Assembly (NCBI GenBank): GCA_963664295.1
Contig: OY760935.1
Location: 1,056,001-1,120,000 of the forward strand
From: Candidatus Altimarinota bacterium
Lineage (GTDB): Bacteria; Patescibacteriota; Gracilibacteria; CAIRYL01; GCA-016699755
Reading direction: 5' to 3'
DNA: 64,000 nt
The notes beneath the pieces are model-generated. The model was not told the origin of the DNA. It made no database searches and saw only the letters and a list, made by a program, of their open reading frames with translations. Made by a program: the position numbers and the translations under genes. Positions 11,703 to 25,719 of this stretch are shown here, piece by piece. The number at the start of each line of letters is the position of its first letter. Within the stretch, counting starts at the first letter, position 1.

Positions 11703-11757
11703 TTTATAGTAAAATTTATATTTTAATTATACTTTTTAATATATAAAGTACAAATAA

Positions 11758-12145
11758 AGAGCGGGATGCTTATTTTTTCGGAGCTTTGCTCCTCAAAAAC
11801 AAGGCCTTCTGCGCTCGCTCGGAATTTTGCACAAGCGCAAATTCTCTCGCTCGCTTGAGTGTCGAACCCGAGGCTTCTTATCAAGCCACTTCTTTGCCAT
11901 TATTAAAAATTTTGCCCCCATCAGGGCAAACTTTTTAATGGCGGAGAGAGCGGGATGCTTATTTTTTCGGAGCTTTGCTCCTCAAAAACAAGGCCTTCTG
12001 CGCTCGCTCGGAATTTTGCACAAGCGCAAATTCTCTCGCTCGCTTGAGTGTCGAACCCGAGGCTTCGTATCAAGCCACTTCTTTGCCATTATTAAAAATT
12101 TTGCCCCCATCAGGGCAAACTTTTTAATGGCGGAGAGAGCGGGAT
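11758..12145 (-). repeat. 189-bp tandem repeat (2 units) containing tRNA-Ser 3' end with 94-nt T-loop insert
   Basis: 11758-11946 vs 11947-12135 differ at one position (11878 T / 12067 G); each unit has GGGTTCGA-[94 nt]-ATCCCGCTCT(CTCCGCCA) on the minus strand. Confidence 0.95.
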
Positions 12146-12220
12146 TCGAACCCGCGGATCCGGTATAACCGAATCAACACATTAGCAGTGTGCCGCTTTC
12201 GACCACTCAGCCATCTCTCC
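12128..12220 (-). tRNA. tRNA-Ser(GCT)
   Basis: GGAGAGATGGCTGAGTGGTCGAAAGC...CACAC-T-GCT-AATGTG, long variable arm, GGTTCGAATCC, encoded CCA. Confidence 0.97.
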
Positions 12221-12248
12221 GTAATATTATGTTGTTAATGTTTCATCT

Positions 12249-12383
12249 GCACACTGCTTGTTGCGTGTGCCCCTATCTAGATACACTCAGCCATCTCTCC
12301 GTACTTTGTAAAAATATTAATGTTCTGTTCGGCACACTGCTTGTTGCGTGTGCCCCTATCTAGATACACTCAGCCATCTCTCC
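12249..12383 (-). repeat. Two 52-bp direct repeats carrying the tRNA-Ser 5' end
   Basis: 12249-12300 = 12332-12383; each starts (minus strand) GGAGAGATGGCTGAGTG, the first 17 nt of tRNA-Ser. Confidence 0.95.
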
Positions 12384-25349: not shown

Positions 25350-25424
25350 TGCCCGGTAGCCAAGCGGTAAGGCAGGGGACTTTGAATCCTCCATGCGTAG
25401 GTTCGAATCCTACCCGGGCAGCCA
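25350..25424 (+). tRNA. tRNA-Gln(TTG)
   Basis: TGCCCGGTAGCCAAGCGGTAAGGC-A-GGGGA-CT-TTG-AA-TCCTC...GGTTCGAATCC...CCA. Confidence 0.97.
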
Positions 25425-25610
25425 TTTAAAAACAGTTGTCACAAAGTGACAATTTTTTTAAATTATTGTTTAGGTAGGACCGAGAACCTGGTTCGACAGC
25501 TAGGAGCCCGAGTGCAAGTGTATGCTTGCATTAAGCTTGCCGAGGGCGACGACGATGCCTTATTTTGCGAGGTGAAACCGAGCAAAATGAGCATCCTACC
25601 CGGGCAGCCA
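25407..25610 (+). repeat. Duplicated tRNA-Gln 3' end (18 bp, period 186) with 96-nt T-loop insert
   Basis: ATCCTACCCGGGCAGCCA at 25407-25424 and 25593-25610; GGTTCGA at 25490-25496 precedes the insert 25497-25592. Confidence 0.93.
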
Positions 25611-25719
25611 GTTGCTTAGCGAGAATTATGTTTAAGTGGGTTTTTTGCATAGTTTCAAATTGTCTTCAGAAAACAATTATATTAAACTAAAAAAGATAAA
25701 AAATTTAACCACAAAAGAC

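Follow-up and report, generated by a model that had tools for sequence, protein, structure and literature searches.

The window analysed here is a stretch of 64,000 nucleotides (nt; contig OY760935.1, positions 1,056,001 to 1,120,000) from a Candidatus Altimarinota bacterium, whose complete single-contig genome, labelled G000, comprises 1,215,430 bp at 33.5% G+C with 37 tRNA genes and a tmRNA gene. Behind two of these genes, tRNA-Ser(GCT) and tRNA-Gln(TTG), lie modules of one shared layout: the tRNA is followed by a terminator-like hairpin, an imperfect antisense copy of the tRNA 3' end (arm X), GGTTCGA, a structured core, and an exact 18-nt copy of the tRNA tail. At both loci the core is flanked by GGTTCGA and ATCC, placing it between nt 58 and 59 of the T-loop of the tRNA copy, and the tail copy corresponds to tRNA nt 59-76 (ATCC...CCA; Ser 11939-11956, Gln 25593-25610). 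The features, in window positions, are as follows.

12128-12220, minus strand: intact tRNA-Ser(GCT) (ARAGORN; Rfam RF00005, 62.4 bits), whose last 18 nt, 12128-12145, are the copied sequence.
12094-12125, minus strand: Ser unit 1, terminator-like hairpin (A-run, stem, T-run) directly after CCA (terminator call, sequence).
12075-12088, minus strand: Ser unit 1, arm X TGGCAAAGAAGTGG, imperfectly reverse-complementary to the tRNA tail, CCA included (sequence, fold prediction); its predicted pairing partner is the tail copy at 11939-11956.
12061-12074, minus strand: Ser unit 1, small hairpin resembling a decayed inverted T-arm (sequence, fold prediction).
12051-12060, minus strand: Ser unit 1, TCGGGTTCGA, the T-stem 5' strand plus TTCGA (T-loop nt 54-58) (sequence).
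11957-12050, minus strand: Ser unit 1, core of 94 nt (covariance model, consensus fold).
11939-11956, minus strand: Ser unit 1, exact 18-nt copy of tRNA nt 59-76 (sequence).
11755-11936, minus strand: Ser unit 2, whole (Tandem Repeats Finder, covariance model, sequence).
11905-11936, minus strand: Ser unit 2, hairpin.
11886-11899, minus strand: Ser unit 2, arm X.
11862-11885, minus strand: Ser unit 2, small hairpin and T-stem 5' strand.
11768-11861, minus strand: Ser unit 2, core of 94 nt.
11755-11767, minus strand: Ser unit 2, truncated tail copy.
25350-25424, plus strand: intact tRNA-Gln(TTG) (ARAGORN, Rfam).
25428-25459, plus strand: Gln terminator-like hairpin after CCA (terminator call), overlapped by a promoter-like TTGTCA-17-TAAATT.
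25466-25479, plus strand: Gln arm X TTGTTTAGGTAGGA (sequence, fold prediction).
25480-25489, plus strand: Gln CCGAGAACCT (sequence).
25490-25496, plus strand: Gln GGTTCGA (sequence).
25497-25592, plus strand: Gln core of 96 nt, a divergent subfamily with the shared fold and other stems (covariance model, 85.3 bits).
25593-25610, plus strand: Gln exact 18-nt tail copy (sequence).

All parts that an earlier note had described for these two loci are present in the same order at both; its layout, coordinates, hairpins and folds are confirmed, and that first description was therefore accurate. No module has any coding capacity, the units of 171-189 bp being without an open reading frame (ORF). The Ser unit is tandemly amplified, as claimed: over 11758-12145 Tandem Repeats Finder reports a period of 189, 2.1 copies and 99% matches, and the sole difference found by eye between the two units is GATACGAAGCC versus GATAAGAAGCC. 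Word depth across the unit junction (12028-12145) is 22-42 versus 14-19 in the flanks, which fits two copies; short-read contigs of the source runs break inside the repeat, none of the pieces listed from four runs spans it, and the number cannot be confirmed from them. A run from a second study yielded near-identical Ser-module pieces and a loose end resembling the Arg module.

The core belongs to a family dispersed within this genome. A covariance model built from seven cores recovered nine copies in G000, all of them behind tRNAs (eight genes: Gly-GCC, Ser-TGA, Arg-GCG, Gly-TCC, Ser-GGA, Gln-CTG, Ser-GCT twice, and Gln-TTG); the distance from the CCA to the first core base is 66-77 nt. The prediction of one covarying insert family at TTCGA^ATCC of tRNA 3' copies is thus upheld in nine of nine matches. 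BLAST with the Ser unit led to five further places in the genome, each just behind a tRNA gene. Canonical cores at unrelated tRNAs share 87-98% identity, while each locus takes its arm X, T-stem bases and tail copy from its own tRNA. The two tRNA-Gln paralogues have a near-identical hairpin, arm X and post-CCA sequence, yet different cores, which shows the core to be exchangeable within constant flanks. The Ser-TGA module lacks a tail copy and the Gly-GCC tail copy is decayed; these truncated and decayed copies, along with the tandem amplification at Ser-GCT, show turnover. Directly after the last CCA stands GCTTAGCGAGAATTA, at window positions 25611-25628 and at five further genome sites; it accompanies modules at tRNA-Gln (two genes), Gly-TCC, Phe and Lys-CTT, and at some of these continues into a purine-rich repeat of about 80 nt.

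A second covariance model was made from 11 sequences. BLAST with the Ser unit against 40 relatives gave no real match, and an exact-pattern scan with the core sequence of G000 itself found 0 loci in genome contigs and 0 in metagenome contigs. Counting G000 in each sample, the first model matched 4 of 151 genomes sampled from the class; the second matched 6 of 151 from the class, 3 of 151 sampled from the phylum, and 2 of 20 in the order to which G000 belongs (G000 and G004). In f18, a second family of the same class that carries the module, 7 of 12 genomes were matched at E up to 0.01, one or two of them doubtfully. Homologues stand behind other tRNAs in two families of the same class, and the distribution over the sampled genomes is patchy. 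The complete series (hairpin, arm X, GGTTCG, core, exact tail copy) is present in G004 at Gln-TTG, Arg-TCT and Ser-GGA (two units), in G081 at Val-GAC and Cys-GCA, in G090 at Lys-TTT, in G108 at Arg-GCG, in G139 at Glu-TTC and Arg-TCG, and in G132 at Arg-TCG. Those of G081 sit between co-oriented tRNA genes (Val-module-Ser and Cys-module-Leu), and in f18 the module's first hairpin has no T-run. Left of the core, the T-loop bases agree with the local tRNA (e.g. GGTTCA for a TTCAAAT loop), which indicates that the copy is locally derived with its junction at 58/59. The second hairpin of the Arg-GCG module in G000, and of several f18 cores, is a TCCGCC..GGCGGA hairpin. Three weak model matches (L071, L072 and L073) were rejected as false, having no tRNA nearby and lying, by eye, apparently in coding sequence. 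These comparisons show that the core is nearly the same across tRNAs within a genome and diverged between genomes.

Sites without a tail copy are seen in a relative, in support of the earlier interpretation. G002, a complete genome of the same family, has no tail copy at 31 of the 32 tRNAs read, among them Ser-GCT, Gln-TTG, Gln-CTG, Gly-GCC and Arg-GCG, five tRNAs that host modules in G000; its tRNA-Gly(TCC) is followed by a decayed module with a different, longer insert.

A degenerate pattern for the two conserved loop strands of the core was scanned through viral contigs and a collection of species-representative genomes, giving at least 121 loci in the latter and 2 in the former. Most record titles name Saccharibacteria, Gracilibacteria, Peribacteria, Peregrinibacteria, Parcubacteria-type groups or Patescibacteria, and the few differently labelled records may be chance matches or binning errors. 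By this motif the core family occurs in many Patescibacteria lineages and their phages. Locus-level reading covered 82 motif loci: a same-strand tRNA lies within 250 nt upstream at 17, an exact 12-nt copy of that tRNA's end follows the core at 13, and the remaining 65 of the 82 stand in other intergenic places or in core arrays. One Saccharibacteria record (L094) has at least three cores head to tail with spacers of about 20 nt. The two viral contigs (L088 and L089) are phage-like, with genes for a portal protein, a prohead protease and a CHAP domain; in L089 the core and the 3' end of the portal ORF overlap, and this sequence recurs in a Saccharibacteria metagenome-assembled genome record. 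At L231 (G292:C1:34124-37210) a core close to the G000 version runs antisense to a tRNA cluster, flanked by direct repeats of the tRNA-Pro 5' end and leader. These sequences show a portable core, found off tRNAs, in two phage contigs, and once in antisense beside a tRNA 5'-end copy. The earlier suggestion of T-loop targeting describes all nine copies in G000 and is not supported as a general rule: with 65 of 82 loci lacking a same-strand tRNA within 250 nt upstream, and one copy antisense, the core is not strictly a T-loop element.

The modules are also strongly structured. Those at Ser and Gln fold better than 200 of 200 shuffles (z -3.68 and -4.19), and the closing helix of both predicted folds is arm X paired with the tail copy. 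The two inserts, described earlier as differing in sequence but alike in fold, do yield a common consensus fold with compensatory changes; in the Ser core, hairpin 1 has CGAG/CGAG tandem G.A pairs and a CUUG apex, and hairpin 2 reads CUUGU..AUAAG. In the 11-sequence alignment, which was fitted to the model and thereby favours structure, 93.3% of cells pair versus 37-51% when partners are slid by 1-3 columns, both sides change in 18 of 24 pairs, and none of 500 shuffles reaches any observed measure. The core consensus comprises a stem P1, GAGGAWAGCGAG, a variable hairpin P2 (often with a CUUG-type loop), YGAGCGACGCAG, the returning strand P1' and a further hairpin, of which the canonical G000 copies are a divergent version (CAAGCGAGCGAG ... 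CGAGCGAGCGCAG). The internal loop GAGGAWAGCGAG / GAGCGACGCAG is conserved while the stems are hypervariable, the P2 sequence being distinct in 80 of the 82 motif loci. The predicted P2 stems contain 777 Watson-Crick pairs, 36 G.U and 7 isolated A.C; read on the tRNA-sense strand, G.U exceeds A.C in both P2 (36 vs 7) and P1 (21 vs 11). Arm X shows C>T at 11 of 36 C sites versus G>A at 13 of 106 G sites (Fisher p 0.019), and its C>T changes retain pairing as G.U.

Such data can be read as the mark of a family of structured non-coding RNA genes, which would be transcribed together with the tRNA or right behind it and whose spread would be secondary. The helix of arm X and tail would imitate an acceptor/T-stem stack ending in CCA, with a conserved domain projecting out of the T-loop, and the RNA might serve as a decoy, regulator or processing signal toward a factor that handles tRNA 3' ends. 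T-loop motifs tolerate insertions at position 58/59. The strong covariation, the conserved internal loop among hypervariable stems, the module fold scores (z -3.7 and -4.2), and the excess of G.U over A.C and of C>T over G>A all suit this explanation, as do the G081 modules within co-oriented tRNA genes and the f18 first hairpin without a T-run. It sits poorly with the intrinsic-terminator-like hairpin that precedes each G000 module, and with the promoter-like sites, which show no excess over shuffles. The G292 copy runs antisense to tRNA genes; decay, tandem amplification and within-genome homogenisation are the behavior of repeats, unlike that of single-copy RNA genes; and unrelated cargo, even a nuclease ORF, occupies the same layout (below). 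An RNA gene family with secondary spread is thus a tentative possibility, although a function at the RNA level would be compatible with mobility and keeps substantial weight.

Searches against described families identified no match. At the Rfam gathering threshold only three real tRNAs score in the whole window; at E up to 10 the two module loci give weak, chance-level rows only, the modules themselves having no RF00005 match; and Rfam 15 at E up to 0.01 returned tRNAs and two unrelated rows only for 20 consensus-core loci. The Rfam match that would have counted against the earlier note's reading did not appear, and full-text literature searches (supplements excluded) found no description of the core family.

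The modules lie in a genome whose tRNA genes are widely accompanied by pieces of themselves. Taking the last 15 nt of each tRNA with at most 3 mismatches within 1.5 kb downstream, 3'-end copies stand behind 16 of the 37 tRNAs, versus a chance expectation of 0.018 per tRNA flank (0.68 over all 37); upstream copies of the first 15 nt accompany 8 of 37, and either kind 20 of 37. Among 66 tandem arrays with a period of at least 25, 15 overlap a tRNA gene or stand right next to one (distance 0-3 nt), with identities mostly of 96-100%. A second kind of tail module bears unrelated hairpin inserts after T-loop nt 54, and occurs at tRNA-Val(TAC) (1131.7 kb), Ala(TGC) (119.1 kb), Lys(TTT) (557.5 kb), Lys(CTT) (136.0 kb) and two Met genes (13.7 and 419.2 kb). 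It consists of a hairpin, a long inverted copy of the 3' third of the tRNA, a TATAAT/CTAATTA-like spacer, the T-stem 5' strand, a hairpin insert of 47-65 nt and a tail copy, with two tandem units each at Val and Ala. Upstream of tRNA-Pro(TGG), an array at G000:C1:482683-483373 (2.2 units of 321 bp) contains the tRNA 5' part up to the T-loop GGTT, in which a TCCGCCTTAGGCGGA hairpin replaces the anticodon arm, and a small GIY-YIG ORF (open frame 91 aa) after GGTT, in two complete copies. Moreover, a hairpin based on GTTCT...AGGTT occurs 8 times in G000, always 7-8 nt after a tRNA-type ...CCA tail (e.g. 488817, 545377 and 606541).

Further tRNA-linked repeats were observed alongside these. The GTTCT/AGGTT base motif also occurs after module-bearing tRNAs in f18. 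On the minus strand at window 12204-12383, upstream of tRNA-Ser(GCT), 5'-end repeats form 2.2 units of 83 bp, each with the first 17 nt of the tRNA, TATCTAGATAGG, a perfect hairpin GGCACAC..GTGTGCC, and CGAACAGAA; the ATCTAG and CGAACAGAA motifs recur in units that precede a tRNA-Met (G000:C1, about 419.5 kb), so that a 5'-end module family exists too. A segment of about 4 kb (G000:C1:70189-74360) with two large ORFs (701 and 599 aa; no function assigned) lies between tRNA-Asp and a short tail copy that is followed by a GTTCT hairpin; it is island-like, without a recombinase. A GC-rich strong-hairpin repeat (...CCTCTCGCTCACT...) stands behind tRNA-Leu, Lys, Ser, Met and Thr genes and the tmRNA gene (G000:C1 97.6, 135.5, 606.3, 748.0, 844.4 and 1133.5 kb).

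Two further explanations draw on this background. The modules could be attachment-site scars, left where integrative elements crossed over in the tRNA T-loop or 3' end and lost their bulk, joining the pieces nearest attL and attR. Direct repeats of tRNA tails are the classic signature of such events; the two-ORF segment at tRNA-Asp and the repeat families that abut the CCA ends of tRNAs and tmRNA fit the same picture, and partial tRNAs made by integration are published (PMC9897764). Direct repeats of tRNA tails (attL/attR) belong to integrase-borne islands, partial-tRNA arrays included (PMC9897764; tycheposon preprint 10.1101/2020.12.28.424599). These resemble the present modules in the exact tRNA 3'-end copy downstream of an intact gene, the repeated units and the T-loop as junction; they differ in that the module is under 200 bp, carries no recombinase or cargo, and has a structured core in the T-loop of the copy and an antisense arm. 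Scars of this type are improbable here, given gene-less units of 171-189 bp, a complete genome with one tyrosine recombinase and no serine recombinase, a core that interrupts the T-loop of the copy rather than adjoining an intact att core, and the same core at eight tRNAs with its structure conserved across families.

Alternatively, hairpin-induced template switching or slippage at structured tRNA genes might have left unselected replication debris, the hairpins being fresh palindromes. The direct-inverted-direct order centered on the terminator loop and T-arm is what such events would leave, and the near-identical arrays and partial copies at tRNA genes (15 of 66 and 20 of 37, as above) agree with it. 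Debris cannot, however, yield the same core at eight tRNAs, nor explain why other families and phyla-level groups have covarying stems around a conserved internal loop; it is already contradicted for the core, and as a whole explanation is very improbable, even less credible than scars, although the spare tail copies could originate in this way.

The reading that we develop here, and consider evenly poised, is that the module is a non-autonomous, gene-less, structured mobile DNA element, likely spreading between tRNA tails with the help of a putative mobiliser. In its favor we count the multiple copies, nine of nine at tRNA tails; the recent copying within the genome and the turnover; the different host tRNAs in each genome, the patchy distribution and the portable core; and the same layout holding other cargo, namely unrelated hairpins, the GIY-YIG ORF at tRNA-Pro T-loop copies and, in f18, GIY-YIG ORFs within arrays of hairpin-plugged tRNA copies. 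In the mechanism proposed, a spare tail copy would arise beside the intact gene. Judging by the inverted-then-direct order around the terminator hairpin, it would be made where hairpins (those of the terminator and of the T-arm) provoke strand switching or recombination. The core would then be copied into the loop of the spare T-arm in a structure-directed, single-strand event, for which the universal GGTTCGA and ATCC loop halves may provide landing homology and the conserved internal loop a recognition feature for the putative machinery or an RNA-binding factor. Insertion into a working tRNA gene would be lethal, which would explain why only spare copies are seen.

Several observations weigh against a mobile element. 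A fresh insertion whose empty counterpart survives in a close strain was not encountered, and the tRNA-specificity of arm X and of the tail copy is unaccounted for by any demonstrated step. The wobble and substitution biases (777, 36 and 7 pairs in P2; G.U over A.C; C>T over G>A in arm X) point to selection on a single strand and would suit an RNA gene equally. Candidate enzymes, among them the HUH and reverse transcriptase genes that the earlier note proposed to check, are mostly missing: in the complete genome, Pfam profiles for reverse transcriptase (PF00078), TnpB (PF07282), IS110 DEDD (PF01548), Y1 HUH (PF01797) and serine recombinase (PF00239) had 0 matches. A tyrosine recombinase (PF00589) is present once, at 1158017-1158550, far from any module and about 90 kb from the nearest of the core-bearing class, that of Ser(GCT). 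GIY-YIG genes are present as well, as three small ORFs (open frames of 91, 91 and 103 aa) and one long protein; none adjoins any of the nine G000 modules, G004 has 6 model matches yet no small GIY-YIG gene, and a regular-expression screen of the 400-nt flanks of the 82 core loci, crude and hence weak as evidence, detected no GIY-YIG-like ORF.

The small GIY-YIG genes nevertheless keep company with tRNA copies. Two of those in G000 lie in the tRNA-Pro partial-copy array and one at about 622.6 kb; by open frame they are frequent in f18 (10 in G090, 12 in G108, 4 in G139 and 1 in G081), and 10 of the 17 read have a same-strand tRNA within 600 nt. Those of f18 sit in partial-tRNA-copy arrays with loop hairpin plugs such as TCCGCC..GGCGGA. 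The gene at about 622.6 kb (622.4-622.9 kb) is Ssn-like and flanked by GTCATT..AATCCAG hairpins, of which there are 12 genome-wide; four more of them sit in a tandem array of 217 bp x 4 at 268.6-269.5 kb. The Ssn family comprises single-domain GIY-YIG endonucleases acting on single-stranded DNA and associated with NTS/SRM hairpin repeats (PMC11893778). The likeness lies in the short, oriented, multi-copy hairpin repeats together with tiny single-domain GIY-YIG genes in G000, and the hairpins flanking the 622.6-kb gene match NTS/SRM repeats in form (PMC11893778). The core differs in having another sequence, a larger fold of two or three helices and a position inside tRNA-tail copies, and the word tRNA is absent from the text of that paper (PMC11893778). 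Moreover, repeats flank the nuclease in the case of the GTCATT..AATCCAG hairpin, not of the core. A small single-domain, Ssn-like GIY-YIG nuclease is the only candidate class of mobiliser present, on circumstantial grounds.

Comparison with other repeat systems gives partial resemblances. REP/BIME sequences with RAYT, ERIC, Correia and Rickettsia palindromic elements are small, non-coding, hairpin-forming, intergenic, multi-copy repeats that are probably passively transcribed. The module is likewise small, non-coding, hairpin-forming, intergenic, multi-copy and probably passively transcribed, but G000 has no HUH/RAYT gene, and the module's stems are hypervariable round a conserved loop and its flanks tailored to the tRNA. 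The tyrT 3' repeats of E. coli (rtT RNA) follow their tRNA gene in tandem, and every unit closes with the tRNA 3' terminal nucleotides, much as here; unlike them, the module occurs at many tRNAs in many genomes and has no Rfam match (RtT included, if in the library). Integron attC sites are recognized through a conserved unpaired motif in a fold with freely varying stems. Recognition of the core would rest on a like arrangement; its motifs are others, and an integron integrase and cassettes are absent. Miniature inverted-repeat transposable elements are multi-copy, non-coding units with terminal inverted repeats and a related autonomous transposon. The module, multi-copy and non-coding, may be akin to them, with arm X and the tail copy in the role of inverted termini, but these termini are tRNA-specific, and no autonomous partner was found. 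Retrons, IS110 bridge-RNA systems and IS200/IS605 elements differ through the enzymes that G000 lacks (reverse transcriptase, DEDD transposase, Y1 HUH and TnpB). Other candidates were rejected: a tRNA intron, as the copy has no D or anticodon arms; a split or permuted tRNA, as no anticodon is missing from the set; a tmRNA-like domain, with a normal tmRNA present and a sole Rfam row of 18.9 bits over the tRNA tail; a retroelement primer-binding site, as the genome has no reverse transcriptase; and a TnpB guide RNA, as it has no TnpB or TnpA.

Partial self-copies thus accompany 20 of the 37 tRNA genes of G000, and the core module is one recurrent, conserved route among them. In practice the modules interrupt short-read assembly at tRNA genes and give rise to pseudo-tRNA calls. 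A bolder generalization, which we think unlikely as it stands, is that modules throughout Patescibacteria rebuild themselves round the host tRNA and would form a new class of element templated by tRNA tails, either a mobile element for which the tail is a programmable address or a tail-mimicking RNA that titrates or guides an enzyme of tRNA 3' ends. The host organisms have very few known mobile-element enzymes and a minimal RNA-processing kit, and either answer would be new biology: how a gene-less unit gains the tail of a new tRNA, or an RNA that acts on tRNA 3'-end metabolism.

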